Shown here: one piece after another, positions 22,401-63,368 of the stretch
Position numbering within the stretch: position 1 is the stretch's first letter
How the letters are laid out: every line of letters starts with the position of its first letter
Source: Amoebophrya sp. A120
Taxonomy: Eukaryota; Protista; Dinoflagellata
NCBI GenBank assembly: GCA_905178155.1
Contig: CAJINV010000004.1
Location: 4,520,518-4,584,517 of the forward strand
Length of the DNA stretch: 64,000 bases
Direction: 5' to 3'
Made by a program: the position numbers and the translations under genes
The notes under the pieces: model-generated
Seen by the model: only the letters and a program-made list of their open reading frames with translations
What the model was told of the DNA's origin: nothing
Databases searched by the model: none

Positions 22401-24809
22401 CGGAAAGGAGTACTTGGAAAAGGCGCGAAGTGCGCTGGACATTTTCAGTGGAAACGACGAAAGCAGCAGTAGCAGCAGTGACTCGGAGGCAGACAGCGTG
22501 AAATTGAGTGAAAATAATGTTGACCAGGATCGAAAAAGAAGTGGCTCTGTTCCATCTGAAAGTATTGCTGGGCAACACAATCACAAAGTCAATGTTCTTG
22601 ACAAAGCGCGGCCGCAGTCGCAGAAGCAGAACGACGCGGGTTTTTATGACGAGGACCTCCTCAGTTTATCGGCCGAAACTTCTTCCTCCTCTGAACCCGA
22701 CACCTCCGACAGCGAAGTGTTGCAGGCGCGCCGCGCAGCCAAGGCGTTGACTAATTTGACCAAACGACGCCTCGTCGAAGGGAACAAAGAGGACCTGCTT
22801 GGCGCCGCCGGGACGTCGACAATAAAACCACAAGGTCGAGTTGTATCAGGGCAAGCACCTCCGCATCAGGAGCAACAGCACAAGAACGACATGATCGAGG
22901 GTAAAGGCAACAGCGTCGCCAGTTCATCATCACCAAGATCTTCATCTTCCCTTGGGCCGCTCCGGGGGAATACAGGGACACCAGTGAGAAGAAAGCCACC
23001 TCCCCAACTGTACCCGATCAAGGGGAAGGACATCAAGGGGCAGTATCCTGTGCAAAAGTATCGTACTCGTACTCATTGCAAATATGCATGACAAATCTCC
23101 TTCCTAAGGCAAAACAGCACTACAAATTCCAGCTTTCTTCTTGCCAAAGTTTGTGATGCAATTTATAGTAGTGCGATACTTTTGCAATGCATACGCAGCA
23201 AGGGGGAGCAAAGGGCGGTGGGACGAGTGGAAGTCCGATTTTGAACAAACCAGTAGGAGGTGATAGTACTCATGCCACTGGAAGCCTGCTCGTTGGAAAG
23301 GCCGAAAATATTAAATCCTCGTCTTCAAGCAGTGGTAGTTCGTCCAGCAGCTCCATAAATGGGTATAAGGGACAGGGAAAAACCGGCAAGAAAAGCAGCG
23401 AAGAAAACTACCGAGCCGGCCCACCTATGCCCGCTGCGTCTTCAGCATCAGCAGGAGCAGCAAGTGCGCCACGGTCCGCGTCAAAAGAAGAACTCAACGA
23501 GCGAAGTGCAATAAATAAGCATAAGGGCTCATCTTCTATATCTTCAAACTACAGAAGTAACAAGCGTCCTGCGGGTGCTGTGGACCAGCACCTCCTGACT
23601 ACCGCAGCAGCGGACCCAAGAACTACCTCCTCCACACGAGTACATCACGACGACCAAAGAACCCATGGCTCCGAAGATGTCGATGACGCTGCCAAGCGGC
23701 GGCGCGGCATCGAGGAAGACATGCGGCGCGCGTTCCAGGCCGAGGCTGCGGTGAAGCGGGAAAACGAGAAAAAGATCGGGAAGTTGGAGGCCGACAGTCG
23801 GAAAATAGGGGATACATTTTTCCAAAGTGAAAAGCACAAGAACCTTCTGGAAACTGATGTGAAATACAAGCAGGGCTACGACTTGACGGAGGAATTGCAA
23901 TCACTCGGCACCAGAAACCGCGACGCAAAGTTGCTCCGGGCTGAGGAACGGGATCTGCTGAATTATTTCCACGAGAAGAGCGGTGGCCGCGGGCTTGCGG
24001 TGGTAAAGTCCTCCTCGTCGAAGAGGCCTGCGGGAGGGGATGAACAAGGGATAGGGAACAAGTCGGGAACGACAAATGATAAGAGCGGCGAAGCAGGGCC
24101 GAAGATGAAAATGAATACCAGTAGTACGGCCGCCGGTGATGAAGCTGCTCCTGCTGACATGGTAAAGAAATCACCCAGCGTCGAAGTTGTTGAGAACAAC
24201 GGAACAAAAAGACCACGCACTGCTACGACAAATAGAACCGGTGCTAGTAGCTCGGACATGGTTTTCGTTGTGGATGACGTTGCTGGCGTGGTGCATGAGA
24301 CGAAATCGAAAAGCAAGGCGAAAATAACCCGGAGTGTCAGTAAGGAAAAAGCCCGCCCTGCAGTTGTGCCTTTGACCACTGCATCTTCTTCATCCTCATC
24401 AGCTCCGCCAGCCAGTATGTTGAAAGCGACGGCAGCAGCTGCACGTGAAGCTGCAACTGGCGCAGGCGCTCGCGCAGCCTCGTCGAGTAGTAGCGGTGCA
24501 CCGCGAGCCCCAGCAGCAGCCACAGTATCCAAAAGCAAGAAGACAGAACAAGAACGCTCCTCGTCGGGAATAAATCAAGCCAAGAGCAGTTCTCGTGGGC
24601 AAAAGAAACCTGCTGATGCACCTGGTAATCATTCGGAAGACGAGGATGATATCGATCGGCTTCTGCTAAGCGGCGACACAGACTCCTCGTCGGAAGAGGA
24701 TAACAACTCTGATGAGAAAGACAACTCTGCTGGCGGACGAGAAAGTGATGGTCTTACGTCGGATTCTGAAATCGACAACATTGCAGCGACAGGAAGAGCA
24801 GATACATAG
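19409..24809 (+). CDS. DnaJ (J-domain) protein with long low-complexity C-terminus
   Basis: YRVLGL...KRKYRKLCLQKHPDK...EEFVKINEAW contains the HPD motif. GT-AG intron 19608-19999 and introners at 21047 and 23044 join ORFs 19882, 21313 and 23187 in frame. Confidence 0.85.
21047..21311. mobile_element. Introner family A
   Basis: TSD GGTGG; can be read as a GT-AG intron 21043-21312; very similar to the 2801 copy. Confidence 0.95.
23044..23193. mobile_element. Introner family B (TIR core TGCAAAAGTATCGTACTCGTA)
   Basis: TSD ggcag/cgcag; removal joins KGQ|QGGAKG. Confidence 0.9.
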
Positions 24810-32235: not shown

Positions 32236-32542
32236 TATGGAAGCGTCAGGATTGAAATCGTCAAAGCTGAAATGGTTTGTGATGCATAAAATGCTAGACG
32301 CAAAGTGCCTGTCTTGCAGAGCAGGCAACTGAGGCCGATTATAAGCCTGTTTGGGGTGTGAGATAGAGCTGCTAAAATAGCATGACAAAAGCAGTCTTCT
32401 CTGCTCAAACAGCATGACAAATTGGATTTCCATGCTGCCAAAATTTGTCATGCGCCACTTGTAGACTGGGCTCCAGCTGGTATCGCTTTTTTGCATTACA
32501 GATTATTTCAACTTTGACGATTTCGATCCTGACACTCCCATA
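32236..32542. mobile_element. Family D element (TIR TATGGAAGCGTCAGGATTGAAATCGTCAAAG), apparently intergenic
   Basis: TIRs match copies at 40455 and 56663; flanked by a roughly 75-bp direct repeat instead of a 5-bp TSD. Confidence 0.88.
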
Positions 32543-33221
32543 ATGATGGCTGTCGGCTTTGCGTACTGCAAAAAATCGGTCGCCAAGGTCGTTCTCGTTC
32601 GTAACGAGCTTCGGTTTCATTGTCGTTCTTTTTTCAAGAGCAAACCTACGTGCAAGAGAATCGGATACGGATATTATTTATTCAGAACGGTACGCGCTGA
32701 GGCCTAGAATTATTCGCTTCTCGTTCAAGCGAAAATCGGTCCTCACTCTTGTGACTGGAAAACAAAACCCCGCATTCGTGCAGCTTGGTTTCATATATTC
32801 GGTCTAGCATCGCCATTTGTCTGAACGTACTTTCGTCGCGTGCGCGTGTCCTTCGTCCTTTTGTACACTACCCATTGGTCGAAAGCAGTAGTACGTGAAC
32901 CGACGGTCGTCTGTGCCTCACCAGTTGTTTCGTGCAAAAAAATGAGAATCAGTGTACTCTGCTATTTTTTCTACACAACAGCTTCGCACCTCCTCCACAC
33001 GCAGGATATTATTATATTGACCCACTCAGTTCTAAAACAAAAACGGTCATCTGCATGATCCTCGTACAATTCATTGTAATTTTAAGCCCGACCACAGCGA
33101 CAGAACCCTGACCCTCACACTTCTTTTATAATTACTATGATCCCACCTGTTCAGAAATAACTTTTCATCACTTATCCGATCTTCACGCCCCCACATCATC
33201 CTGAAATAAACGGCTGGTAGA

Positions 33222-36200
33222 ATGATGCAGCAACGAAAACGCTTCATCCCGGTCTTGGCGGCGGCAGTTTTGTTTTTGGCCCACTTTCAAGTTCTTCACC
33301 AAGTAGTGTTTTGCTACACCCTGAAGCCCACTGCCGTTCACACGTCGCGAGAAGCGCAGCCAAACAAGGCGCAGCTACACTTCGGGAGCAAGAACAGGAG
33401 CGCCGAGAAATCTACATCGACGGGGGGCGGCGGTAATGCGAAACTTAGTACGCTTTCGTCCTCAACAACACGTAGCCGGATCTCCAACAATGAGCAGCAG
33501 AAGAGCCCTGAAATTGCTGGTGATATTACCTCCAGGTGGCAGGAGGAGATGAAGCAACATGCTCTTGGCGAATCAACAAGTCTAGGACGAGGAAGTAGTG
33601 CCTCCGGCTCCGCATCCGCTTCCGTTTCGGCTTCCTTGCTCGAAGAGGAGGAACAACTCAATCGAGCAAACGCCGACACCAGCACAACTAGTGGAGAAAC
33701 CAATAGCCAGAAACTTCCAACTGGCCAAGTTGTAACCGATAAAATCGCAGCTGCGGTAATGTTGCCTTCTTCTTTATCGCCGGAGACAATGACAAAACAC
33801 AATTCTGCCACCATCTCGCGCGGCGGGCCCGCGCCGATGCTCGGCGCCCCGAGTGCAAACGGACAAAGCACAGCTGCCTCGTCCGCCTCTCTGGAATCTC
33901 TGAACGAGAAGCAGGACGCGCTGGATGCGAAAATGGATCAGGTTTCAGCGGATTTGACGGCGAAATCCGACAGCATTCTTCTCTATCACAGGAAAAAGTG
34001 TTGTTTGACGTTAAGAACAAGTAGTACGGAATTTGTGATGCAGCAGCGCAGCCAATACCAAAATTCGTCATGCATAGCATGGTGCATGTACTAGGCTAGA
34101 CTTGTGATGCATTAATACTGCTGCAATCTGTGAAAACGAAATAAACCGCTCACGTATAACGCTTTTGCTTGTGATATCCTCCAGGTCGAAACCATGAATG
34201 CGGATGTGAAGGCGCAAGTGGAGAGCATGCGCAGCCAAGTGATGGCGGAGGTGACAGCGGTGCAGTATCCTGATTAAAAACGTCCCCACACCAGAGTCAA
34301 GATGGGAAATCTCCTAGACAAATCAACCCGCTTTGGTTGTTTGGCATGACAAGTCTGTCCTCGTAGTGTAGCCCTGTTTCAGGTAGGTCAGCAGCGTCAC
34401 AGATGTATCATAGCATGCTGGTGGTCCTACCATTAGCATTACAAATCTCAAGACACGATTAGAAAATGCTTCTCATAGGGCTCCGCATGAGATGAAACTT
34501 TTTTGGCATGCAGAATTGCATGACAACTCTGGGCCTGGGGACGTTTTTACACGGGATATGCAGGGTAGCATCACGAACGAGGCCCGGCTGAAGGAAATGA
34601 TATGAAAGCCTCAGAATGCAAATCCTCAAAGTGGAAATAATTTGTAATGCAAAAAAACGACTCCAGTCGAAGCGCCATTTCTAGTCGGCGCATGACAAAT
34701 TTACCGGGCACTCAAAGCATGTCTGTCATGCTAGCTAGGGCAAAGGGGTGCCCTTCTCTCGTGCTGATCAGCAGCACAGTTCTGAACCCGTAGAAGCACA
34801 ATATCAATAGTCGGCCGCCATTGCGTCCTGCTCTGCAATACAGTCTTTTTGGTGTCGCATTTCATGCGTCACAAATTATTTCCACTTTGAGAATTTCCAT
34901 TCTGAGGCTTTCATATATGATTGAAGCCGCCGCGAAGGATTTCTTGCCGCCCAAAGTTATCCTGAGTAAGAACATCTTCATCATCCCCACGAGGACCTGG
35001 ACCCCATAGTCAAGTTCTTGGGAACTGAGCAACACAGTAAATCCAGAGTTTTTGGGCGTCAGCACGCATGACAAGTTTTTCTCCGTATTGTATATTATGC
35101 AGGCTACTCCTACTTACCAGGGACAGCAGCATCAAAAATTCGTCTCGTCCTCATCCTGTTTACAGCATTACAAATGTTGCCAAAGCACGACTGACAATGC
35201 CTCTCATGGGACTGCGCATTTTTACAAGTGTAGTTTCTGTGATTGCAAATCTGCATGACAAGAGCTCTCGGGTGGAGACATTCTTACTCGGGATAAAGGT
35301 TGTCGAACTGTTGGAGGCGATGGATTGGTATGAACTGCAAAAGTATCGTACTCGTATAAATGCATGACAAATTCCCTCAGCATGAGAAATAAAATTTGTA
35401 ATGCGGATCTACCTTGAGAAAAAAAATGCATGATTGCAATACGCGTGCGATACTTTTGCACAGGATAATTGGGACCAGCTTGAAGCGGATGCGATTTCCA
35501 TCAAAGATATCAAATGCCAATATGTCTACTGGGTCTGGAAACTTGTGATGCTAGTTTGTGAATGGAGGTGGCCACTACATTCATTGCAATACGCAGCTAT
35601 GCATGACAAGTTTTTTAAGCTCATACGTGATTCGCTTTCTGCATGGAAAGGTGCATTGTTGCGTGACAGGCAATCGACTTTTTTGTTTTTCCTGCTCCTG
35701 CATTACAGATTTAAGCGACAACGGCATGCGCATGATCATGCGCACGTGAGACTACAAGCATGACAAACTTGCATTCGTCCAGACCCAGACATGATCCTTG
35801 CACTGTATAAAAAAAAAGGTTGTCTCCGGAGTGGTCTGCCTGGGGGTGTTCTGGGTCGTCAGCACCGTGTTTTTTATGGCGTTCTCAAACGTTACATTCT
35901 CAACTGTTACATGGATTTGTGATGCAAGAACAGCAATAGTAAAAGTGGCAATATTGCAGCTTTCGCATCACAGATTTGCCACAGATTATCATGCTGCTTA
36001 GCCATTCGAAAATTTGTCATGCTAAGCACCTTGATCAAGTGGAGGCTGATGGCAACTTTGCATGACAAATCCGTGTAACAGTTGAGAATGTAACCGTTGA
36101 GAATGCCATACTTTTGATCCTCGGTGTCTGCCTCACCTGTTGCCAGGTGGCCAATCTGTCGCGCACCGCCGCGGCCAACGCGGCGCGAGGACCGGGTATG

Positions 36201-39049
36201 ACAGTGCACAACTCCCCCTCCTTCTCATAAGTATAGCATGAACAGCAATAGTACAAGCATCAGAAAGAGTGCCGGTTTTGCATCACAAATTTGCACTGGA
36301 TTATAGTGTCATTTAGGCTACCAGAACTTGTCATGCATAATAGTGACAGGAGGGAAAGCTGCGTGGATTTGGTACTTTGCATGAGAAGTGAGAACGAGAG
36401 GGAGTTGTGCACTGTCATACCGGGGCCGGTTGTGCCACAAGTCCAAACTGTAGTGGAAGAGTACCTATGCTGTGCAAAAGTATCGTAGTAGTATAAATTG
36501 CAATACAAATTGGGTCAGCATTACAAATTAAATTTGTAATGCGGATTTGCCTTAAGAAAGAGATTTGTAATGCATAACTGCAATTACTACGAGTACGATA
36601 CTTTTGCGCAGGATAGTACCACTATGTCGACGATGTCACAACGGCGCCGCCGACCTCGAAGAATATCAAATGTAAAAATGTCTGGGTCTGGAAGAGTGCA
36701 TGTTTGTCATGCTTGTCTGGCATGACTCTTGAATCTGTCATGCACGTTACCCAAGAGCTTAAGGGGTCCCATTCAATCGAAACCGAAACCTCGTGTATAG
36801 CTATCAAAAGGTGGAGCTGATATTTTCAAAGGTGGGGGTCGAAATTTTCAAAGGTCGGTTTTCAAATTTTCAGTTGTGGAATTTGTTAAACAAATTTCAC
36901 AACTGAAAATTTCAAAACCGACCTTTTCAGAATATGAAAAGCAACCCAAGCGACTCAACTTCTTGACCGATTACAACACCAGAGGACCGAGATCGCTGCC
37001 ACCGACGCGGAGACTTTGGCTCACGGCAACTGCTGCGGGGCCGCAGTGCGCCGCGTTCTGCCTTGCAGGTAAGTAAGCGAGGTGTCGCACGTAGCCCCCC
37101 GGTTTCGGGTGGTGCAACTGCCGCCAGCAAGGGCGAGAAACGGCCAAGGCTAGGCGGACAAGGAAAAGCGGAAGACACAGAAGCGCCCCAAAGCAATGCC
37201 GGAGGCAATGCAGGGGCTGGCAAGGCAGGCAAAATAGCGGGTCGGCGAGCTATTTCGCCGGCGGTCCCGACTCCCAAAGCGCGAGCCCAGCCGGAAACGG
37301 GCGAGAGGCGGAGCGAGGGCGCGCCCGCGCTTCTTGGCGCGAGTGAAGCCGGGCCCGGCAGCGTTCCCCCCGGTTGTTTTTTTTCCCAAGCGGGGGGCCG
37401 CTTACTCTCCCTCGCCAACATTTGGCGTCCGCCGGGCCGGCCAACAAAATGCGCGACGTCGGTGCCGCGCAACGCTGCGCGCAAAGTTAATGACAAAAAA
37501 CGGCGGCACTTTTCCGCATCCAAAGCCGGCACTTCAGCAGACATCTTCTCGGCATTTCAACAGAAACGAGAAAAAACGTCGAAAAAGCCGGCGTCCAAAA
37601 TCTCCAACTTCGGAATCATTCCACAGGACATAGGTTCTCAGCCTATAGTTATAGGTTGAGAACCTATATGGCCAAAAATCACATATCCGAGAATTCCGTT
37701 TTTCGGAATGATTCCGTCAGATGAAGGTTGGATACCTCCAAATGGAGGTTGGATACCTTCTGGAGAAGGTTTCAACCTTCTCCAGAAGGTATCCAACCTC
37801 CATTTGGAGGTATCCAACCTTCATCTGACGGAATCATTCCGAAAAACGGCACAGCATCCGGAGCAAAAAAGCATCGCACTTTATAGGTTCTCAGCCTATA
37901 GCTATAGGCTGAGAACCTATATCCTGTGGAATGATTCCGCAGCCTAGGAGGTTTGGGTGACGGAATTTTGGAGGTTTGGGTGACGGAAGTTCCAACCGTT
38001 GGGCGATTTATCTCAACCGAGCCTAGGAATTATTACGCCACTGTCTGGCGCTTCTCGATGTCTTTTCGAGAAAGTGAAAGGACATCGCGACGAACCTGCG
38101 GCGCGATGGCTGCGGGGCTGCCACTCTTTTTTTGTATTGTGCGCAACGGAATCTGCGCAATTCGTTCCACTTGATACGCACCAAAAAAACCTGCCAGCCC
38201 GGTAGGAGCCCCGCGCCAAAAGTGGAAAGCGCCAGGCGCCGGGGCGGCACGGGGCTGGGAGAAATTACCGGCGGGCGGCGATCTTCTTGCAGTCTGTGCG
38301 CTGCAGCGCTCGCGAAGTTGCCGTCTGGGGAGTGAAGCACTTGCGCCCCCCAGCGTTACAATGGCCCGCGCTGCAGTTTCGCTGCCGCAGGAAGCATGCC
38401 CCCCGCGGGCTCGCGCCCGACGAGGCGCGTAAGACTTTGCGGCCGCGTTCTCACGATATATCTCGCGGAAGCCCTTTTTTTTCAAGTCCCCAGGCGCCCA
38501 GGCTCAGGCATGACCATCAAAGGTCGGGCCGAAAAGAATCCTTGAACTTTGAAAAAAACCCTGAAAATTTGGCGAAAGAATCTGGCTTCGTGCAGCATCT
38601 TTTTGGCGCGATTTTGCTGATTTTCTACCAAAAATAACGCCGCACGAAGCCAGGCGCTGTCGCCGAGTTTTCAGTTATTTTTTGCAAAAAAAAAAATTCA
38701 TTTTCGGCGGACCCCACCTTTGAAAAAAGCGACCCCCACCTTTGAAAGCTCCAGCTCGAGCTTTTGGGAGCTATGCACGAGGTTTCGGTTTCATAGAATG
38801 GGACTCCATACAAGAGCTCCATTTTTCTGTGATGCAAGAACGCAGTTTATCATGCAGAATAGGCAACACCTAGAAGCTCAGAAACGTGTCATGCTGAGCC
38901 AGCATTTGTGGCCTCATCATGAGACGCCACCCAGCATCACAAGTTTCCAGACCCAGTCCCAGACATTTTTGCATTTGATAAAGAAGCGGGCACAACGATC
39001 ATCGTCGCGGGACGCCATTTCAGAAACCTTCATTTCGCCCAGAAGATAA
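33222..39049 (+). CDS. Signal peptide / coiled-coil / single TM / Cys-tail membrane protein with 10 introner introns
   Basis: Removing 10 elements, each with one TSD copy, gives a continuous ORF: ...SDSILL|QVETM...TAVQ|GSITNEARLKEM|IEAAAKDFLPPKV|VELLEAMDW|DQLEADAISIK|KKVVSGVVCLGVFWVVSTVF|LILGVCLTCC...RGPG|PVVPQVQTVVEEY|HYVDDVTTAPPTSKK|RAQRSS...ISPRR*. Confidence 0.85.
33984..34176. mobile_element. Introner family G (TATCACA..AAAAAGTGTT)
   Basis: TSD ttctc/tcctc; related to the 56131 copy. Confidence 0.82.
34266..34558. mobile_element. Introner family H (TATCCTG.TTAAAAACGTCCCCA)
   Basis: TSD TGCAG; TIR; frame restored. Confidence 0.88.
34601..34915. mobile_element. Introner family I (TATGAAAGCCTCAGAATG; related to D)
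   Basis: About 45-bp TIR; TSD aatga/tatga. Confidence 0.88.
34958..35295. mobile_element. Introner family J (TATCCTGAGTAAGAA)
   Basis: TSD aaagt/aaggt; the mismatch allows a GT-AG reading. Confidence 0.82.
35329..35467. mobile_element. Introner family B
   Basis: TSD ATTGG. Confidence 0.92.
35508..35809. mobile_element. Introner family A (diverged)
   Basis: TIR with indels; TSD aaaga/aaaaa. Confidence 0.8.
35875..36110. mobile_element. Introner family F (TATGGCGTTCTCAAACGTTACATTCTCAACTGTTACA)
   Basis: About 37-bp TIR; TSD ttttt/ctttt. Confidence 0.88.
36197..36419. mobile_element. Introner family E (TATGACAGTGCACAACTCCC)
   Basis: TSD CCGGG. Confidence 0.92.
36466..36615. mobile_element. 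Introner family B
   Basis: TSD GTACC. Confidence 0.92.
36760..38810. mobile_element. Non-autonomous hAT-like DNA transposon
   Basis: 8-bp TSD CAAGAGCT (36752-36759, 38811-38818); imperfect TIR TAAGGGGTCCCATTC...GAATGGGACTCCATA; subterminal TTTCAAAGGT repeats; no transposase ORF recognised. Confidence 0.85.
37611..37939. repeat. Nested palindrome/foldback
   Basis: Outer inverted arms plus perfect 76-bp inner arms (37696-37771 / 37774-37849). Confidence 0.92.
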
Positions 39050-45344: not shown

Positions 45345-45517
45345 TAAAGTTCTTGAACTCTTGCCGCGAGGACGGCAACCGTGGACGACCGTGGCTGGCG
45401 GGATCCGATCGTGGATCGATCTGCGCGGAGGACGACCCCAGTTGTAGCTACTCGATCGATCATCTGCGCGGACGATCCCAGTTGTAGCTACTAGCTCGCT
45501 GTGAAGAGCGAGGTCGT

Positions 45518-48500: not shown

Positions 48501-49522
48501 CCTCTTGCATGTATCAGCATTACAGGTTTCCAATCGTGAATAGCAGAAATTTGTATTGCAAAAGACCCCAGCAAGAGCGGCGCTTGTCATGCAAGCGATG
48601 CGATACACGCCTAGACTCTGCATCAGAAAGATTCGCACTCCTTTCACGCATGACAAAAAGTTTTCATTTGGAAACTTAGCATCACAAATTTTTGCAATTT
48701 CAGGGGTGGGGGGCACTTTTCACTGCAATACTTCTACATGTTGCCCCCACACCGACGATTTTTTCGAACACCTACTACAAAAAGAGCATATCCTGTGGAA
48801 AAGTATCTATCGCACTCGTATTGCAGTCATGCCTTACAAATTCGTTTCTTAAGGTATATCCGTATTACAAATTTTATTTTGCATGCTGAGGAAATTTGTA
48901 ATGCCTTTATACAAGTGCGAAGATACTTTAGCAATGCATGGAGCACCCGGGCCTACCTGGCTACCGGCGGTTGCTGGATCGCGCACTGAAATCGTTGGTG
49001 AGCAGTTTGTACTTTCACTTGTCCCTGCCGAAAAACTGGATCTACAATAAAGCCCTGCAGTCGGTGAAGGGCACTTTTGACGACTACGAGGACTTCGCTT
49101 CCTACGTGCGGGAGTTTGCGAAGTCGACAAATTATAACTCGTGCGCGGAATTATTCGTAGACCATCAATTATCGGGAACTACATCCACCTCTTCGACGAC
49201 GTCTCTTCTCGCGTCCGACGTGGTTTCATCTCTTGCGGAAAATAAGTCTGCAAGAGTTCTTACCTCCTATGGGGCTTTATTTCGGGATAGCTCCCGTGCG
49301 AGGAAAATTCTGGTCGAAGCGAACCCGGAGAGATGTGGCGTTTTCTTCTTTGACGAACCGTTGGCAGTCATCAAGCGTGCAGCAGGTGGCGGTGGAACAA
49401 TAAACGGAGGAAAACTTCTAAATCACTGTGGGACTTCCACGCGGCGAACCAGCGGCAGTGCCGTAACATCTGCGCGACCGAGCCTCGTGGAAATTTTACA
49501 GGCGTATTACAACGCCACTTAA
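45518..49522 (+). CDS. Hypothetical protein, possible papain-fold (C58-like) C-H-D protease; 3 introners
   Basis: Removing elements at 47975, 48425 and 48789 joins SIRRR|TPLAT...TCSS|TCCPH...QKE|HPGLP. Motifs GQCCVGL, GAHQMC, FYDPN. Confidence 0.6.
47975..48245. mobile_element. Introner family A
   Basis: TSD GGCGA; GC-AG reading possible. Confidence 0.9.
48425..48730. mobile_element. Introner family C
   Basis: TSD CTTCT. Confidence 0.9.
48789..48940. mobile_element. Introner family B
   Basis: TSD GAGCA; right terminus reads CATG. Confidence 0.88.
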
Positions 49523-52321: not shown

Positions 52322-55062
52322 TAGTATGTTGAGGCTGCGGGGGGTGGACATCGATCACCTCCAGCTTCGGTGTGGTAGCCACGAAGCGGCCCTATATGTG
52401 CAAGTGGTTCTTGTAGTGCTGCATGGTCGTTTTTAGTAGGGCGCACAACCATAGATATGCTGATGAAAAAGCATAGATATTGATATTCATATTGAATAAA
52501 CTGCTGCGGATGCAACATAACCTCAACTCGGCAACATCGAGCTTTTCTGTCTCAGCGAAAGTAGTTCCGCGGATTAGATGTGCTCGCACCAGTAGTACTC
52601 GATGCCATTTAATATCCCCCCGAAGGTGACACATTCGATTTAAGTAATACGTTTTCCCCAGACGATTCCTTACATCGCCTATAGATGGAATACAAGATAC
52701 ACTGTAGCCCAAAACTACAGGTAAACACACGTCACGAGCCACTTTGGAGAATAAAAGACGGAATTGTAAAAATACCTCTTTTAATTTTCAAAGTCTCGCT
52801 CCTCGGCACGAGCACCAAAGACTCATGGAAAATGAACCATCCACAGCGTTAAGCTACCCACTTCATATACAACGTTCAGAAAGTCCCCCCCCAGACCAAT
52901 GTTTAGCAAAAGAAGTATAAAATGTTTTCGACACGTGTAAAATGTTTTCAGAACGCTCAGCTCAAGACTTAGGTTTTTTCGTAGCGTAAAAGCTACGGGG
53001 ATACGCTACTGAGAGAAAGTTTTTCTAGTAAGTACAGTCTTAGATAGTCTGTTCCAATCAAAACTGTTGTAGTTGTAAGTAACAAGACAAAGACTCGTCT
53101 CTACAAAAATAAATGCGGTGAGCAACAAAGCCAATTTTTTTTTGTGGAATTTCTGTAGTGAGTGTGAGTAACTTTGTGAAGTGTAAAATTCCAATCTCCA
53201 ACATGAGTATTGACCCCGAAACAAATCTTTTTTTTTTTGGGAGGTGATTCGACCTGTTCAGTAGTTTTTCGGATACGATCTTCACTAGAATTCCATACAT
53301 AGTTCTATCCCGCCCTACTTGTTACATATCGAGCGCCAGCAGGCTTAAACGGCGTTCATTCGCGACCTTCTGTTTATTTTCCCTTGTACACTGACAATCA
53401 TTTGTTCTGTGCTAGCAAGCTGTGCTGTCACGGCTGGTCTTTAGTCAGGTAGTTGTTTATACATCGTCTTTTCGCTATAGCAGACATACACAACAAACAT
53501 ACTTTTTTTCGATAGCAATGTACTCGAGGACTTCGATTTGGTGGACAATTTGACCTATTGAAGTCCGTATTTTTCCTGTCCTTCCATTTGTCAGATTGAT
53601 GTTCTGATTCGTATCGGAATTGACAAATGAAACCAATGCTGACGTAATATTGCAGTGTGGTTGATTTTTTGTACTTTTTGAACACTATTCTATCCCAAGA
53701 ACGCAGTAGTATCTTATCTCGTCGGAGCTTCACGATACGTAAAAGTCGATCGCGTTGTGACGTACAACAGAATGTCGAAGTAGTGTAGATTTTCCATTCG
53801 TGATCGTGAAGCTTTTTCAATTTTCAAACGCGACAAGAAAGAACAAGAAGAACGGAAGATCCTGATCCTGATTTCTTTTTCTTCACAACACTACTAGTAC
53901 TAGTCCTCCACATTTATATCGTCCTCCAAAACGCCGAGAGCGGCACTGTTTTTTTTTTCGTTGTTACTAGACGTTTCGATCAGCTGTCGTTCATGAACGC
54001 ATGGACCCGCCCGTGCATGGGCGCATGGCAGCTTGGTAAACGTCGATTCTCACTACAGAACAAGTAAAGACAACTTAGTATGAGTTTGTAGCTCAAGACG
54101 AAAGTGAAAAGTTCAGTAGAGTCAAATTAATTGTAAAAGTTAAAGTATAGAATACAAAAAAGCGTCCTTGTGGATTTTTTTCTCTTGCCTCCAGGCTTGT
54201 CCGCGTCTTCAGCACGCAAGGTACATCCAGCAGCGACCGGTCCTTTGCTTTCACACAACGGAGGATCACTGATTCTCTTTGTCCAAAACGCTCAGCAATT
54301 TGTTTTTTCAACAGCGAGGCCCGAACGTGTACGTGACCACCTGCTTGATGAAGGTCTAGCAGCTACTCCAACATCCACTGTGCTTGATGTGCAGACTGGG
54401 CGGGTCCTCGTGAGGGTTAGAATAACATCTGCGGTGGCAATCGTGGCGCCTAGGCGGGCTGCACTTTGACGTCAGCTTTTAGCGGAACAATAAACGACCG
54501 GAAGAAGTATACTACGGAGATCAACACGTGTAATATACCGACGAAGTAGCCGACAAAATCTGAATCTCCATCCGCTTCAGAGAATAAAGGAAAGCGCGAC
54601 TGGAAAGTTATTTTTTCAAAGAATAAAGAAAAAGATAAAGATATCTACATCTACTTTCGAACACCGAGAATAAAGACACAACGAGACAGCAGACGTTCTC
54701 AGGTAGGTGTTGTTTGATACTTTCACTTGATGTTTGATGTCGACACTATCGTTTTCTGGATTCGTTGGTTTCGGTTTGTGGAAAGCTATTCCGAATGTGA
54801 ATGCCTTCAGCTCCAGGATCGTCGCGCGGCATGATTTCAGTTGCCACCGCATCGATCTGGTGGATGCCTATTACTCGTGGTTGAGAAATAAGATCACGTC
54901 CATCATAATCACGACAGGTTTGGCATAGGCATCCCAAGCGAGAACTTCTTCTACGACAAGAAAGAAAAAGAAAGCGACTTATCCCAAGCAGAACTACAAT
55001 TCCATTTCTCTTGACCGATCGGACCATAAGTACACGCGCCCGCCGTGCAGTCGAGCAGTACG

Positions 55063-58000
55063 ATGATGGGCGGGACGAGCGAAGATAATTCTACCAGCGC
55101 GATCATGGACCTGATGCTAGGCACAACGACCGGCGATGAAATTATAAATCAACACGACCCAGCACCTCATGGTAGTCCAGAGCTAACCTTCAATCATGCC
55201 ACCGGCCAGATGGTGATGACTACAACGGCGCCCCCTGGTGCTGGTCCACCTGCTCCCGCGCTGGCCGCCGTCGTGCCCAGTGGAGTAGGAGGGGTCGCAA
55301 CCACTATTACAGGTGATCAGGAACTACAATGCTCAACACAAAATCACAATGCGACTGCGACTTCGCGAGGTGACCGTACTCCGGTGACCTTTGAAGAATT
55401 GATGAACGTGCAAAGCGACGACCCTCTTCTTGGGGGTCAGACTGCTTCCGGACAAGGTTCTTCAGGCTCTTTCGCTCCTTTTAATAATCCCGTTTCGTCG
55501 AACAGCGGGGCCGCAGTAGATAATAATTCCATGAATGCTGGTGACATGGAACTGGTCACTTGGGCCCTGCAGCAAAATGTTCCGGAGGTGGATAATCGAC
55601 ATCAGCAGCCATTTGTTGCTACTAATATCCACTGGAACAACCACATCAACAACCAAGGGCCCCCGCAGCTGCTGATGCACCAGATGGGTCAACACCAAAA
55701 CCAACAATATCTACACGTCGCAACTACTAATAGTAGTGCCCCGTGTAGTACTACGACATCTAGAGGCGCCGGGGCAGGACCACAACTACATGGGCAGCAC
55801 AACAACCCGCACATCATGATGAACAACTATCGATTACCTTTCGACGCGACTGTCGCAGGGAGTGGAGGGGGAACGCCTGTTCTCGACGGGGGCTTCTTCG
55901 GGGGCGGCACCACTACGTATGCATTGCAAAAGGATCGTTCGTGCTAGTATAAATTGCATCACAAAAAATTCCAGCAAGAACAGAAGTGAAATTTGTAATG
56001 CTGTTTCAGGTTTAGAAAGAGATTTGTCATGCATGAATGCAATTTATACGAGTGCGATACTTTTGCACAGGATACTACGCCTCAGATGTTGATGAACAAC
56101 GGGGGCGGTTCTTTGTTTAACCACAATGCTTATCACAGCAAAAAGTGTTAACGTTAACGGAATTTGTGATGCAGCAATGCATCACAAAACATGCCAAAAT
56201 TTGTAATGCATAGCACGCATATTGGGCTACATTTGTGATGCATGACTGCAATTTGTGAAAACCGTTACCGTTAACACTTTTCCTTGTGATAATGCTGTTA
56301 ACATGAACATCAACCCGACCACAGCAAGAACCGCTAACACTCCCAGAGGCGGCATTGGTTGCGCCGGTGCTCCTATCAAATGTAAAAATGTCTGGGTCTG
56401 GAAGGATCCGAACTTGTGATGCGCATTTTCGAACACAGAAAAATCTCTCATGCATAGGTAGCAAAAGGTGCTCAATTCTGTCACCAAAGTGGGGGGTTTC
56501 TCATGCGGGTTCGGCATTGCGGAGGCTTCTCGAAACCTGTGATGCTAGAGCTTCCATGCCAGACCTTCTGTGTCATGCAAAAACAGCATGAATCTTCCAG
56601 ACCCAGACATTTTTACATTTGATAGCTCCGACGCCGACCGCTGCGCAGCTGAACGGCGGAGCTATGGAAGCGTCAGAATCGAAATTGGCAAAATCGAAAA
56701 ATTTGTGATGCACAAAATCGATGTCAGTTGGAGACTCAGTTTCCAAATGGCGCATGACAAATTTCGGGAGTACCCAAATCCAGTCTGTGATGCTGTTTGG
56801 ACAAAGAAGACTCCTCCTGCAGTGCCACTCTGGCAGCACATTGCATACCCCTAAACAGGCTTGCAATCGGCCTCATTTGCCTGCTCCCCAATACAGGCCT
56901 TCAGTGCCCTACATTTTACGCATCACAAATTTTTCGATTTTGTCGATTTCGATCCTGACACATCCATAGGAGCCTGCTCCCCTTTGGTGGATCCGTTCGC
57001 GCCGAGTTGGCTCGTGGGCACGCTTTTAGAAGAGGAGAAGCAGCTGAAGCCGGAAGATCAGAGCGAAAATAAAGACGGCGCTGCCGCTGCTGATTCTTCA
57101 TCTTCCGGAGGTGACAAAACGTCGGCTGTAGACAACTCTGGCACAACTACTACTTCCGGGGGGAAAAACAAAGAAAACAAGAAGCAACTCGACGAGCTTG
57201 TGGTAAAGGATGTCTCGACGCCGCTCGCCATTTCAGGAGCGACACCGTTCGGCGCCGGAGAAACGACTAAAACGCCGCGGGGTTTTACCAGCAACGCGAT
57301 GAACATAACGGGGGCGCAGCAGGCGCAAAATGGAGAACCAACATTGCGTATATGTTTAATATAAACTGATGATTCTTTTGCTTGGAATTTCGCATTGACT
57401 TCTATCTTGAGCTAGCAGTCTCGAATTCTGATTTGCTCCTCGTAAAATTTAGATTTATGTATCATGACAGCTTTGCCGTCAACAAACGGCTCCTCCACTG
57501 GTACTACCCATGTTGCGGCGGCCAACGCAGCCGGCGTGAGCTCGACCGGTGCGAATCAGATTTTCAATGTGGTAGACCCGTCCCCGATGAACAAAAATAA
57601 CGGCGAGCAGAGCTGCATGAGCGGCGACCAGAGTAACCCATTCTTGCAATTCAGTGGCGACGCGCTGGAGGCAGCGATTGACGAAGCGGTGGGGCAGTGG
57701 AAGTTTGACGACCCAACTCCTTTGAACGACGGAGGAGGAGGGGGTTCCGTAAGTTGTAGAAGAGATCATGCGGCGAGGACTTGTTACAATGATCTTCACA
57801 ACAACAATTTTTATAGGGCCGGCGCGGGCCCGTCCCGTGGCAAAAGCAAAATGAATAACAACAGCTTTCATTATCATGGGAGCAGAGGTGGGTCCTCGCG
57901 CGGAGGTGGTGGAGGTGGTAATTACTACGATCAGTACCACAAGATATGAACTGCAAAAGTATCGTACTCGTATAAATGCATTACAAATTTCCTCAGCATG

Positions 58001-61000
58001 AGAAATCAAATTTGTAATGCGGGTTGACCTTAAGAAAAAGATTTGTATTGCATGATTGCAATACGAGTACGATACTTTTGCACAGGATACAAGAACAGTA
58101 AAAACAACTTTCACGACCAACAGAACCACCTATCAAATGCAAAAATGTCTGGGTCTGGAAAGTTGTGATGCTAGTGTCCGAATGATACGCAACCTGTATT
58201 AGGGGACCGCGCATCACAAGTTTCTGAGCGGCTATGTCCAGCGTGAGCCGCATGACAAATGGCCTGTTTGCATGACAAACAAGTGGCACTGTAGCGCGCC
58301 AAGCATGACAGACTTTTCTGTCTTGTCAACCAAGCATGACAGACTTGCATTCTTGTTCCACACCCAGACATATTTGCAGTGGATACCAACGCAATAAGTA
58401 CAACGACCAGCAAATAAATCTTCACCCCGTGGTCTATCCTGTGCAAAAGTATCGTACTCGTACAAATGCAAGTCTTGCATTACAAATCTCTTTCTTGAGG
58501 CAAATCCGCATGACAAATTTTATTTCTCATGCTGAGGGAATTTGTAATGCATTTATACGAATACGATACTTTTGCAGTTCATATGGTCCGGCGAGGCGCG
58601 ACGCCAACCATGGAGGTTCGGTACACAAACGGGCCGAGTACTAATCTCCTTGCCAGTGGCGGAGGTGCAGGAGCTCCTGGTGGAAACAAGGCAGCCGGGG
58701 TGATGAATGGAGGCAAAAATTATAGTAACTCGTTTTACAACGGCGCGAACGGAGGTCAACCGGAGAATGGTGCTGGACCACACGGAGTTGCCAATTCATC
58801 TCAACAAGGCACCACTACTGCGGGAGATTCTACTTCTTGCACAGCGGCCTACTACACTGGTGTTCAACAAGGAGGCGCTACAGCAGGAGCAGGTCCAGCT
58901 GTTGGTACCAGTATAAAGGGGAGCAAGATGAGTCCCCACTATGCGCCTCAGGGCAGCCCGGGGAAGAGCGGCTCTTTCCTGTTGAGCAGTTGTAGTACAA
59001 ATAAAGCTGCTGGTCAACTGGACGAGGGGGAAGGTGGTGCCACCGGCGCTGGTGCACCAGCTGAATCATCTTCCGTGGTCACAACAACAACTTCGACGAG
59101 TCAGTATGTGAAGGACCGTTTTTTCATGCAACGAACGACCAGCAAGCCGGCGCCCAGTCCGAAGGGCAGCCCCAGCAGTCGTGTCATCATTCAGGAGGAC
59201 GGCACGCGCCGGGAGCGGGATCTCGTTCACGGCGGCACGGTGAATTTAGCACCCATTCCGCCGATGGAAAAAGTCTTTTGCGCGGACACGCTCTTTCCAC
59301 AGCAAGCTATTGCTGGGGGTGGTGGTGGCGGGGCTCCTCTTGCGAACAACATCAATCATGGAGTCGCGGGGGGACCCGGACCTGAACAGCATCTGTCAGC
59401 GGCGGGAGGAGGTGTTACCGGAGGCACTACATCTGGTGCTACAACTTCAACTACAAGAACGACTACAACTTCCGAGGTGGATCACGAGATGCCGGCTCTG
59501 ACCTTGGACTCCGGTGGAAGTGTTGCGAACAGACCAGAAACACGAGATGCTGCCGACGAGCAAAAATCGCCGGAGCTGCTGCCAGGACGAGAGACCGCCA
59601 CCTACACTAAAGACGACATCGAAATGAGTCTCGCGGACACAGAGCCGTCCTCTCAGGGACCGAATTCCGCCGCCGTGCGGCCGGTAGATGCAGCATTTAA
59701 AAATGTGATACCGGCGGCAGTTGTGCAAGAACAACACCAGAATGATACTAGTACCGGCACGACCAACGTCAACAACATCGGGGGGCAACATCAAACGCAA
59801 TCAATTCTCTCCACACCCGAAATCAAGGAAGATTCTGCGCCGGCAGCCGCAGCTGTGACAGAAAATAAGAATGAAGAAAGTGCCACGACGAAGTCGTTGG
59901 AGGAGACGGCCGCGGCTAAGATGAACTTTTCCAATGTGAAAAAGCGCGAGGCTGATCGTGATGAAGACCACGATGTAGGAGCTGCCCTCGCAGTTACTGT
60001 CGCGGAAGTTCCACAGGGGGACAAAAGCGAAAGGCTGCAAGAGAGATCGACGACGGCCAAGAAAGTGAAGTTGGATCTTCATGGTAGTCCTACTACGGGC
60101 GCCCAAGTAGAGCCGCTGAATGAACAAGGGGAAAACGACGAGAAGGGAAAGTCCAGCGGAGCGCAGGAGATCAACACGACGACGGCGAACATTTCCAAAC
60201 TTAACACGAAGGTCCACCTCGGTGTTGAGGATCCGGAAGCACTGCTGGCTGCACCTGAGGAGGAACGCAGCCACCTTGCTTCCACTAAAGAGCCGACTAC
60301 AAATCAGCTCTGTTCTACCAAAATGACGCGATTAGAAGTGGTCGACCTCACATGCACTAAAACCACCAATTGTAGTGAGACGAACAGCACTTCTAGTTCT
60401 CCCGTGGTGCTTGACGCCGCGAATAAAGACGAAGCCGAAGTACCAGATCGTGCGCTTTTGGCCGCGTCCTCTTGTACGACCACTGTCGTGATGCAAGGAC
60501 AGCAGGAGACCCGCCTCGCCCAGGATCAACAACAGCAGGAGCAGGAAGACCATCGGCATGCAAAAATCATCCCGGAGATGAAGATCCAGCACGAAGTTGG
60601 TAGGAGCACGTCACAACAAGTACTAGCGCCATCATCCGGTTGCTGTATCAAGAACGATAAATCTTCTGCAGGCGCCTCATCTGGTGAGAATGAGAACATG
60701 GTGCCTGAGGAACAAATGCTTCTGAAAACTGCTGCAAATGGCCAGACTGCTGCTCGTCCAGCCAATCTCCTGCCTCGACCACAGCGCAGAGGTGGGTATT
60801 TTTTCGGCGCAGAAAGGGATCACGTAGCGGTAGCGAAGGTTGAATACATTGACAGCAGCGCGGGAGGACGGGGTTTGTGTGACAAGGACAGTAGTGAAGA
60901 TTTGTTGAGTAGTAGTTCCTGCCAGGACAATAATCTAAATCTACTTTCTCCTGGTGAAGATGAAAATAAAAAACTCCTTCATCACGACGAAATTAAAGAC

Positions 61001-63368
61001 ACGATCGTCCTCGACCACGGGGCCCCCGATGGAAACAAGAACGGCGCAACGTCGCGTCGTGGCGACTACGTGTGGGTCACGTTCAAGAACGGGAATCAAG
61101 CCTGGTTCCGGGCACCTAAGTACATTCGCGGGGGAGAAATTATCACCCAACTGAAATCTCCTGTGCTGAAACCAGTGGCTGTTGATGTTAGTACTCGAGG
61201 TCCTCTCGACGGGCGGGGACCGTTACAGCCGTTGGCCGCAGGGGACGAGGTGAAAGCAACTTGTTGTTCCATAATCGACAAGCAGGAGGAAGAACTGCCA
61301 GCGGTTGATATCACTCCAGCCCCGATCATCGCATCCAGCAACAGGGGTGTCTCTTCACTGCATCCAGAAGAGATTACAGGTGAGGTGGGAGCGTTTGTTA
61401 ACGTCAAGGGGTCCAGCACCTCGACTCCGAAGATCATCGATCCTCCCGAACATAATCTTCGAGATTCGCAGACAGACCAGAAAAACGGGAACCAACAAAA
61501 TACTAGTTTTAATATCCCAGCATTCCCATCCTCATCCAAGAAGAATTTGAATTATACCCGTTTTGATTCCCTTCCGCCACGGTTTTTCCGACTGAGCTGG
61601 GAAGAGTTTATTCGGGATCTACTAGACGGCTGGCTGGACGAGTACATAGTGCGAAACGCGTGCCAAGTAAAGGCGGACGCGGTGGTGGAAAACAAACTGC
61701 TGTTCGTGCGGGAGCAGGAAAAGCACATCGTCGGGGGAAACACGCTATGCAGTGCAAAAGTATCGCACTCGTATTGCAATCATGCATCACAAGTCTTTCG
61801 CTAAAAGGTAAATCAGCATTACAAATTTTATCTCTCACGCTGAGGAAATGCATTTATACGAGTGCGATACTTTTGCGATGCATACACGCCCGTGGCGTTG
61901 AGACAGGAGAATGAGAAGAAGTTGCAACATGTGCAGAAAGATCTGGACACCTGGTTTGCGGCGGAGCATGCGAAAAGAAAGGGCGTTGATGCTGTGTTGA
62001 ACAAAGGGGATGAAGAACATGAACACGACCAAAGCGGTAGTGCTGATGGGCGGGAAAGAACGAAGGAAATAATTCGGCTGAAGCACACCTGCTTTCCCAT
62101 CCCGCAGGTTGCCATAGCAATGATCATTGGGAATGAAGGTAAAAGCGTTATGTCTGCGGAGGTCGAATAGTAGAATTTACATTTTTTTAGAATGTTTGTC
62201 GTTCTTCGGCACCACCACCACGACATGCACAGTGGACGATTTCATCAATTTTTCGTCAATCCAGGTCGCACGGTGAACTGTTACGAGGAGAAGTCTGGGT
62301 GCTACATTGGCGTTCGGCACGAGAGCCTGTGCGGAAAGGCGTATGGCATTGTGGAGATTGTTGGGTTCGACGCGGAAATTATCTACGCCGTGGAAGAAGA
62401 CATTCACCAAATGGTGGACCGAGCGATAGAAATGTACTAAAGAGCCTTCACTTACTGTATTTAGCGCTGGTACTGCATCACTTGAATAGAGTACAACCTC
62501 TGGTGTCTTTCTGCGATTGCACGGTCCTGGAAGAGGATTATTGTGCATTATTTTCTCAAAGTAAGCTGCATTTCATCTCGCCTGCGCGTACCACTTATGC
62601 GTAATAATAGCGATGTGCTTGATCCTCGAAGATGAAATACATCACAGGAAAAGCAACCACCTTTTGACGGCTAACGACAACTTGACTCCGGCATCTCGCT
62701 TGCGGCAGGTGCAGGGAAATAGAATGAAGCGGACATCGAGCCAGAGGACTGCTTTTTTCGACAAGCGGAATACATCTGGTGAAGGCGATCGCGATCCTGA
62801 CGAGAAAAAGAATGCAAATACCGCTCCGGTAGAGGTGGACGAGATCGACCGGTTTGCCGGCACCAACGCTGGCGTGGCGCAGCAGCAGTGCATCCCGGAC
62901 AGTAGCCGCACGGGTAGTTGCAATATTCAATCTTCACCATGTGAAGATCATTCTGTGTCAGATGAAGCTGTTGACGGCTCCTCGCCGAGGTCCCCAGCGT
63001 CCAAGCGTGCCAAAAGCAACACCGGTCGCGCGGTGACTATGGTAGTTCAACGGAAAGAACCTACTTCTGACCAGAAAATTTCATCTGTGGCGACGTTGCA
63101 GAAAGAACAAGGCCTGGCGCTGCCCGATGTGCTGGATGAGCCTTGTTCATCAACATTTTCACGGCCGGGTACAACAACAGCCGGACCTGCTTCAAACGGA
63201 GCTGACAGCGAGGAGGTGGATGCTGCAACGGCGGTTGTACTTGCAAATTTGACTCAGGAGCAACGATCCACCAAGAAGATGAACTTGTGCCGAGATTATG
63301 ACGGCAGTAACGTGCCCAACAGGCAAGTTACCCAAAGGGTTACGGTTTTTTTTTTTCGGTGTAAATAA
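55063..63368 (+). CDS. Large low-complexity protein with a KH RNA-binding domain; 8 introners plus canonical introns
   Basis: Frame maintained through 8 element removals and GT-AG introns (57348-57470, about 62139-62264). KH signature FPIPQVAIAMIIGNEG|RTVNCYEEKSGCYI...VEIVG. The 3' end is uncertain. Confidence 0.75.
55918..56074. mobile_element. Introner family B
   Basis: TSD CTACG. Confidence 0.9.
56131..56291. mobile_element. Introner family G
   Basis: TSD ATGCT. Confidence 0.92.
56374..56624. mobile_element. Introner family A
   Basis: Perfect 31-bp TIR; TSD GCTCC. Confidence 0.95.
56663..56968. mobile_element. Introner family D
   Basis: TSD GGAGC. Confidence 0.93.
57945..58089. mobile_element. 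Introner family B
   Basis: TSD CAAGA. Confidence 0.93.
58131..58385. mobile_element. Introner family A
   Basis: TSD ccacc/ccaac. Confidence 0.87.
58435..58583. mobile_element. Introner family B (opposite orientation to 57945)
   Basis: TSD TGGTC. Confidence 0.93.
61746..61884. mobile_element. Introner family B
   Basis: TSD CACGC; removal joins GGNT|PVALRQ. Confidence 0.92.

Follow-up and report, generated by a model that had tools for sequence, protein, structure and literature searches.

Our analysis suggests, with good probability, that family B, a miniature inverted-repeat transposable element (MITE) of the dinoflagellate Amoebophrya sp. A120, has inserted both ways in plus-strand coding sequence and is removed as a non-canonical intron made up of the element and one copy of the 5-bp target-site duplication that flanks it. 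The sequence analysed is a stretch of 64,000 nucleotides (nt) of contig CAJINV010000004.1 (positions 4,520,518 to 4,584,517, forward strand; hereafter the window), and all coordinates given below are those of the window. In the mechanism that we favour, family B MITEs would insert in coding exons in either orientation, and the insertions would be tolerated because the pre-mRNA loses the element together with one duplication copy. The four reverse copies would be removed like the forward ones, as the fusion of open reading frames (ORFs) across them suggests, with a predicted terminal hairpin setting the cut sites by uniting the exon ends at a fixed offset. These cut sites would be read by the unusual splicing machinery of this organism, for which U1 small nuclear RNA (snRNA) was not detected in Farhat et al. 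2021 (BMC Biol 19:1, PMC7789003).

Family B elements are 139–157 nt long, with TAT...ATA termini, terminal inverted repeats (TIRs) of ~28 nt and a target-site duplication of 5 bp. The terminal repeat has the form TAT, seven variable nt, then AAAAGTATCGTACTCGTA, and the window contains 13 occurrences of its terminal 20-mer with three or fewer mismatches, as compared to 0.01 expected. The inverted-repeat arms measured 22–29 nt, and Watson-Crick pairs occupy 15–26 of the 28 terminal positions across the eight copies (22–26 in six of them). An asymmetric core of ~90 nt lies between two distinguishable ends, a ‘left’ end reading TATCCTGTGC (in copy 61746, TATGCAGTGC) and a ‘right’ end reading either ...GCAGTTCATA or ...GCAATGCATA. 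The duplications are perfect in seven of the eight copies, the exception being 23044 with GGCAG/CGCAG. Being small and devoid of coding capacity, present in many copies, bounded by TIRs and flanked by a target-site duplication of fixed length, family B is by these features a MITE; no transposase-like ORF was seen in a Pfam scan of the 15 long ORFs, where the sole match was a weak IQ motif, and an Rfam search of the whole window gave no matches.

A profile search built from the aligned copies found exactly eight full-length family B copies in the 64-kb window, four per strand. The forward copies, i.e. those oriented like 58435 (each copy is named here by its first position), are 23044..23193 (150 nt, with the imperfect duplication mentioned above), 48789..48940 (152 nt, duplication GAGCA, right terminus degenerate, ..CATG), 58435..58583 (149 nt, duplication TGGTC at 58430–58434 and 58584–58588) and 61746..61884 (139 nt, duplication CACGC). 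The reverse copies are 35329..35467 (139 nt, ATTGG), 36466..36615 (150 nt, GTACC), 55918..56074 (157 nt, CTACG) and 57945..58089 (145 nt, CAAGA at 57940–57944 and 58090–58094). All eight scored 124–148 bits against the profile in their assigned orientation versus 23–52 bits in the opposite one. Global alignment to copy 58435 separated them in the same way, with 23044, 48789 and 61746 scoring 80.5–84.5 forward versus 33–44 reverse, and 35329, 36466, 55918 and 57945 scoring 79–116 reverse versus 42–56.5 forward. Each right-terminus subfamily is represented in both orientations: the forward copy 58435 shares ...GCAGTTCATA with the reverse copies 57945 and 35329, and the forward copies 23044 and 48789 share ...GCAATGCATA with the reverse copy 55918. 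A first-pass annotation of this sequence had claimed that the ends of family B can be told apart and that 57945, 35329 and 55918 are inverted relative to 58435, 23044 and 48789; the alignment of all eight copies bears out the first claim, and the global alignments and profile scores the second, with two further copies, 36466 (reverse) and 61746 (forward), joining the six that it named. The 4:4 tally, with n=8, is also compatible with a moderate orientation bias.

Nearly all long ORFs of the window lie on the plus strand. When each of the 29 elements of all families (see below) was excised in silico together with one duplication copy and the plus-strand ORFs were recomputed, ORFs of at least 150 amino acids (aa) crossed 26 of the 29 junctions, and ORFs of at least 100 aa crossed 28, including that of copy 36466, which was crossed at the 100-aa threshold only. 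The other seven family B copies all came to lie inside fused plus-strand ORFs of 416–1500 aa: 23044 in an ORF of 1500 aa (19882–24806), 35329 in one of 416 aa that spans five element junctions (33210–35760), 48789 in one of 1096 aa (45488–49519), 55918 in one of 479 aa that spans four element junctions (55030–57361), and 57945, 58435 and 61746 in one of 1338 aa (57446–62167) that also crosses the element at 58131. Five junctions (2801, 11404, 21047, 23044 and 41193) have at least 84 open codons on each side and an unambiguous best frame, and all five are in phase; at 23044, exact removal joins flanking ORFs of 575 and 536 codons. Junction 61746, with 1052 and 92 open codons on its sides, comes into phase as well. 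Retention, on the other hand, would introduce an in-frame stop for six of the seven family B copies whose frame is fixed and a frameshift for the seventh, 58435. A best-frame test applied to each junction placed 19 of 29 in phase, a result that is confounded because micro-exons are open in all frames. The fused ORFs confirm the earlier claim that the named copies of both orientations sit in plus-strand coding sequence and that their removal restores the frame.

Because of the duplication, each family B copy can be cut in several equivalent registers that yield the same product, five to seven per copy and 51 over the eight copies. None of these 51 exact-excision registers has GT-AG, GC-AG or AT-AC ends; AG..AT ends occur in one of them (copy 36466), and AG..AC ends in none. 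The only dinucleotide that stays constant from copy to copy is the element’s own TA, which stands at the 5’ end if the intron is taken as element plus downstream duplication, or at the 3’ end if it is taken as upstream duplication plus element, with the degenerate right end of 48789 as the exception.

The removal of one copy, 61746, can be read directly from a public protein. The 1053-aa ORF downstream of 58435 had one match among 1.84 billion representative proteins, namely P0001 (2912 aa; CAD7945580.1, ‘unnamed protein product [Amoebophrya sp. A120]’, encoded on a contig of 11.76 Mb), which matches the window at 100% identity across 943 aa; searched against proteins of near length, the same ORF had no match. 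Residues 1–1354 of P0001 place part of its gene on the plus strand at 58707..63296, with coding segments at 58707–58877, 58922–61744, 61889–62140, 62267–62434 and 62649–63296. Across copy 61746 the protein reads ...HIVGGNT and, immediately after the junction, PVALRQ..., which corresponds to the removal of 144 nt, that is, the 139-nt element plus 5 nt. The two introns that follow 61746 can be read as GT-AG on a shift of 1–2 nt, and therefore canonical introns and an element intron share one gene.

Two sequencing runs agree with removal at the RNA level. Contigs of the RNA-like run X3 cease to match the window at 42342, 56969 and 61739 while the contig record continues, and in all three cases checked the break coincides with an extreme exact-removal register, of the family A element at 42349, the family C element at 56663 and the family B copy at 61746, respectively; the match of X3 contig 16 ends at 61739, which is the leftmost exact-excision register of 61746. 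In the DNA run X1 (depth ~45), contigs pass from exon into element at 55918, 57945, 58435, 61746 and 48789 at a depth of 41–46, i.e. single-copy. Comparison of bin depths, which is a crude measure, put element-rich bins at ~2,000–3,000x their neighbouring exons in X1 and only ~5–8x in X3.

The annotation of this region showed some further peculiarities. P0001 begins in a different frame at 58707 and reaches the main frame via a 44-nt non-canonical ‘intron’ (58878–58921). A second protein, P0002 (243 aa), was found with the exon 55030–55917 at near lengths, longer lengths giving no match, and it spans 55063–55791, yet the frame is open as far as 55917. To judge by the sequence, the public gene models look incomplete here, and P0001 and P0002, together with what lies between them, may belong to a single long gene. 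A 68-nt segment at 57749–57816, with a consensus-like GTAAGT start, an end reading TTTTTATAG and an internal inverted repeat, resembles a canonical intron; the fused ORF runs across it without a stop and would lose its frame if this segment were spliced out.

Folded as plus-strand RNA, all eight family B copies are predicted to form a long terminal stem (minimum free energy, MFE, of −42.7 to −62.9 kcal/mol; z of −4.1 to −10.2), and forward and reverse copies are alike in the strength of the fold. In either orientation the RNA starts with UAU-N7-AAAAGUAUCG, ends with CGAUACUUUU-N7-AUA and folds into the same terminal stem, because one arm is nearly identical to the other. The symmetry of the inverted repeat thus makes orientation independence a property of the element itself, and a symmetric enzyme is unneeded. 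This bears on the broader claim of the first-pass annotation, that excision is strand-symmetric and unlike spliceosomal recognition: its factual side stands, since both orientations occur in plus-strand coding sequence, ORFs are restored and none of the 51 registers is canonical, but the symmetry follows from the TIRs, and a bypass of the spliceosome is not implied by it. What orientation independence rules out are oriented signals, such as a branch site or an enhancer, in the ~90-nt core, while an asymmetric machine, a modified spliceosome included, may read signals borne by the repeat or measure from the hairpin. The cis-requirements are thereby narrowed to the palindromic parts of the element, namely the arms of the repeat, the stem that they form and the offset.

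A stricter version, which we put forward only tentatively and regard as rather doubtful, is that the machinery reads geometry only, i.e. a terminal stem and a fixed 5-nt offset, and so reverses integration at the RNA level. If this were true, any insertion with hairpin ends, in either orientation and with any core, would be neutral in coding sequence, and a gene carrying the inverted pair 57945/58435 would need co-transcriptional excision of each local hairpin. The two copies of that pair (57945–58089 and 58435–58583) are 90% complementary over 112 nt, with arms 58062–58089 and 58435–58462 complementary at 100% over 28 nt, and they complement each other better than they do their own far arms. 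Their own stems have MFEs of −54.6 kcal/mol (z −10.2) for 57945 and −51.5 kcal/mol (z −6.0) for 58435. In the computed MFE structure of 57930–58600, the two copies are paired with each other over 136 bp, at −313.9 kcal/mol versus −209.5 kcal/mol for the summed local folds. This duplex would enclose a 36-nt micro-exon (58095..58130, plus strand, between the reverse family B copy and family A), a 255-nt family A element (58131..58385, with the same TAT terminus as family B, a CCACC/CCAAC duplication matching at 4/5 positions and an orientation that is not resolvable) and a 44-nt micro-exon (58391..58434, plus strand, between family A and the forward family B copy). Both micro-exons are open in the frame of the 1338-aa ORF, and the ORFs flanking 57945–58583 (166 and 1052 codons) are in phase only with both kept. 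If the outer stem were used, 644 nt would be lost, 80 nt of micro-exon among them, and a frameshift would result; under the hairpin rule, if it holds, removal at this place would be expected to be local and probably co-transcriptional.

Several observations weigh against the reading of family B as an intron removed exactly in both orientations. Direct evidence of exact removal is confined to the forward copy 61746, and what supports removal of 57945, 58435 and every reverse copy is the fusion of ORFs; the model of P0001 begins at 58707, downstream of 57945 as well as 58435, and P0002 ends before junction 55918. Run X3 was assigned to RNA by guess only, and its depth is 0–15 over single-copy bins. 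In an offset control, offsets of +2, +5 and +8 led to 28 of 29 junctions being crossed and the other eight offsets between 0 and +10 to 12–22 of 29, so that the control, with this many crossings out of frame, discriminates weakly. A minus-strand ORF of 250 aa also spans the junctions at 57945, 58131 and 58435. Moreover, open, frame-keeping GT/GC..AG pairs arise by chance within 30 nt at 57945 (four pairs), 58435 (seven) and 35329 (eight), and for these three copies the sequence by itself may leave room for cryptic canonical pairs. Finally, stem mismatches on the transcribed strand of the 29 elements are G.U as often as A.C (30 versus 30), which in a sample of this size gives no sign of selection on the pairing of the RNA.

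Among other explanations, the one that survives best, though we think it improbable, is hairpin-guided removal without a spliceosome, with an endonuclease that would make its cuts at fixed positions at the stem base and a ligase that would then connect the exons, as in archaeal and tRNA bulge-helix-bulge processing or in the route suspected for euglenids. The lack of any conserved terminal dinucleotide, in any register, apart from the element’s TA is consistent with such a route, as is the finding, from alignments and fused ORFs together, that the orientation of the core makes no difference to excision. U1 snRNA was not detected by Farhat et al. 2021 (PMC7789003), and euglenid nonconventional introns of the same anatomy are described as yielding circular excision products (PMC11282704). 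At the same time, the former study found nearly all spliceosomal proteins as well as U2, U4 and U6; the two duplication copies of family B do not pair with each other, and a bulge-helix-bulge motif is not evident in the folds.

We consider it quite unlikely that an ordinary spliceosome removes family B by way of a donor and an acceptor placed symmetrically within the repeat arms, such that GT...AG would be present inside the element in either orientation. The repeat does offer material for this: GTATCG or GTACTC is present in every 5’ arm, TTTTGCAG or TTTTGCACAG closes most 3’ arms, and in both orientations the repeat reads ...AAAAGTATCG on the 5’ side and CGATACTTTTGC(AC)AG on the 3’ side. 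In copy 58435, the pair GTACTC(58454)..GCAG(58577) would remove 124 nt with the frame kept and open, and 15% of canonical A120 introns are reported to have inverted and direct repeats too (Farhat et al. 2021, PMC7789003). At 61746, though, the annotated protein equals the exact-excision product and matches none of the 19 frame-keeping canonical alternatives; with a fixed GTATCG..AG pair, 23 nt of 57945 or 25 nt of 58435 would stay behind in the mRNA and the frame would be lost, and AG is missing at the matching 3’-arm position in 23044, 48789 and 61746. No single canonical rule suits every family B copy, and because of these leftovers, the absence from three copies and the contradiction at 61746, a symmetric GT...AG pair is not the general rule.

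Marginally less likely still is that family B is spliced in a single orientation, the copies in the other orientation lying in untranslated, decaying or wrongly assumed coding sequence, with ORF restoration as a matter of chance in stop-poor, low-complexity sequence. This would fit the confinement of direct RNA support to the forward copy 61746, the position of 57945–58583 outside the public gene model, and the high background of ORF openness, with a minus-strand ORF running across the same junctions. Against it, the fused plus-strand ORFs of 416, 479 and 1338 aa would each require exact removal of a reverse copy plus three to four other elements, and the flanks of 166 and 1052 codons fall in phase only when both micro-exons are included. 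The 4:4 split, with both orientations in each subfamily, argues in the same direction, and so does the scarcity of element words in run X3, which is RNA-like, as compared to DNA; this scarcity would not be expected if mRNA retained half of the many copies that the excess depth in X1 implies.

The remaining explanation, that elements are eliminated from DNA, in the manner of ciliate internal eliminated sequences with their TA bounds, and that mRNA is made from the excised DNA, agrees with the TA termini and the precise restoration of the target but is extremely improbable, as nuclear dualism is not known in dinoflagellates and the X1 DNA contigs hold exon-element junctions of five family B copies at single-copy depth (41–46), on which DNA-level excision was rejected. 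Farhat et al. 2021 (PMC7789003), furthermore, defined such introns by comparing RNA-seq with the genome.

Family B belongs to a larger population of elements in the window. Scanning for sequences with TA termini, a 5-bp duplication with no more than one mismatch and complementarity at 16 or more of 24 terminal bases gave 30 hits, or 28 after two nested false ones were dropped, versus 0–2 in five shuffles. Together with the degenerate copy 48789 this makes 29 elements, a lower bound given that the scan missed a degenerate family-A-like copy near 35497, and these, each with one duplication copy, take up 7,079 nt, or 11%, of the 64,000-nt window. Clustering arranged them into five multi-copy families and seven singletons. 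The elements are densely packed at 33984–35467 and 55918–56968, where the intervening exons are only 28–84 nt long, and two other families are likewise bidirectional in plus-strand ORFs (34601 and 56663 versus 40455; 36197 versus 41193). An internal module, GCATTACAAATTT / AAATTTGTAATGC with variants GCATGACAAA, is common to different element families (57977–58020 and 58476–58551, with weak profile hits at 32380–32453 and 4590–4688), and the shared sequence suggests that the families are related or exchange parts. In raw RNA of run X9, ~90 (93) partial reads match only a 34-nt piece of family A, 56591–56624, with unrelated sequence on both sides, and three partial reads of run X10 match the same piece; this family A fragment is carried by a highly expressed transcript elsewhere. 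With regard to mobility, integrase-type enzymes usually generate duplications of 4–6 bp, and an introner with ORFs of the long terminal repeat (LTR) retrotransposon type would for this reason be a candidate mobiliser of MITEs with 5-bp duplications. According to Gozashti et al. 2025 (PMC12130899), some A120 introner families do combine inverted-repeat ends with ORFs resembling LTR-retrotransposon genes.

The closest known system is that of Amoebophrya itself. Farhat et al. 2021 (PMC7789003) report that more than 60% of the introns of strains A25 and A120 are non-canonical, and that introner elements form a subset with inverted repeats of 8–20 nt and direct repeats of 3–5 nt over the boundaries; in A120, they counted 1,954 introner families, and repeated introns (29,850) make up 17% of the assembly. 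They also propose that exon boundaries may be joined by hairpins, and describe the A120 repeat motif as ‘TAT, seven less-conserved nucleotides, at least three As’, which the family B forms TAT-CCTGTGC-AAAA and TAT-GAACTGC-AAAA match letter for letter. Family B shares with these elements the organism, the inverted repeats at the ends, the 5-nt direct repeats, the non-canonical ends, the predicted hairpin, the multiple copies and the lack of an internal transposase, and we see no structural difference from them as they are described in that paper. Since family B fits every feature described there, the kind of element is already known, and on its sequence features family B very likely figures among the 1,954 A120 families. 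The main text and supplement legends of the paper (its supplementary figures being outside this statement) do not mention the orientation of elements with respect to transcription; ‘orientation’ is used there of genes only, and ‘strand’ does not appear in the supplement text. A literature search covering 2021 onwards brought up no later paper on the mechanism of Amoebophrya splicing, and in the texts named here the orientation constraint was not found in print for these elements. It is a modest constraint on recognition and a corollary of the published system, not a new system.

The introners of Aureococcus anophagefferens are reportedly described in Huff et al. 2016. Like family B, the introners of A. 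anophagefferens and the introner-like elements of Polarella glacialis are DNA transposons with inverted repeats and target-site duplications, and classes of Polarella (of Aureococcus, by citation) are described as creating introns in either orientation (Roy et al., bioRxiv 10.1101/2020.10.14.339549). Their splice sites, as given in the same preprint, are spliceosomal, G[T/C/A]...AG, supplied by the element and/or the duplication, and orientation is biased in all classes. Family B, unlike the introners of Micromonas, Aureococcus and Polarella, has no G[T/C/A]..AG spliceosomal sites in any register, and the exact junction in P0001 agrees with this.

Euglenid nonconventional introns resemble family B in their non-canonical borders, in TIRs that unite the intron ends in the RNA, in duplication-like repeats at the junctions and in a suspected MITE origin (PMC11282704; PMC3935182). 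Euglenids are a different lineage from Amoebophrya, and their CAG/CTG motif at +4..+6 and −8..−6, as reported in PMC11282704, is absent from family B, which has CCT, GAA or GCA at +4..+6. Fritillaria borealis has non-canonical introns that are similarly MITE-derived and species-specific, with inverted repeats (Henriet et al. 2019, cited in PMC11282704), but they prefer AG-AC and AG-AT ends, which among the 51 registers of family B number zero and one, respectively. The internal eliminated sequences of ciliates, finally, are removed from somatic DNA, whereas family B is retained in X1 DNA at single-copy depth. Among the known cases of introns that transposons have made and that lack splice signals, Amoebophrya A120 is the most extreme.

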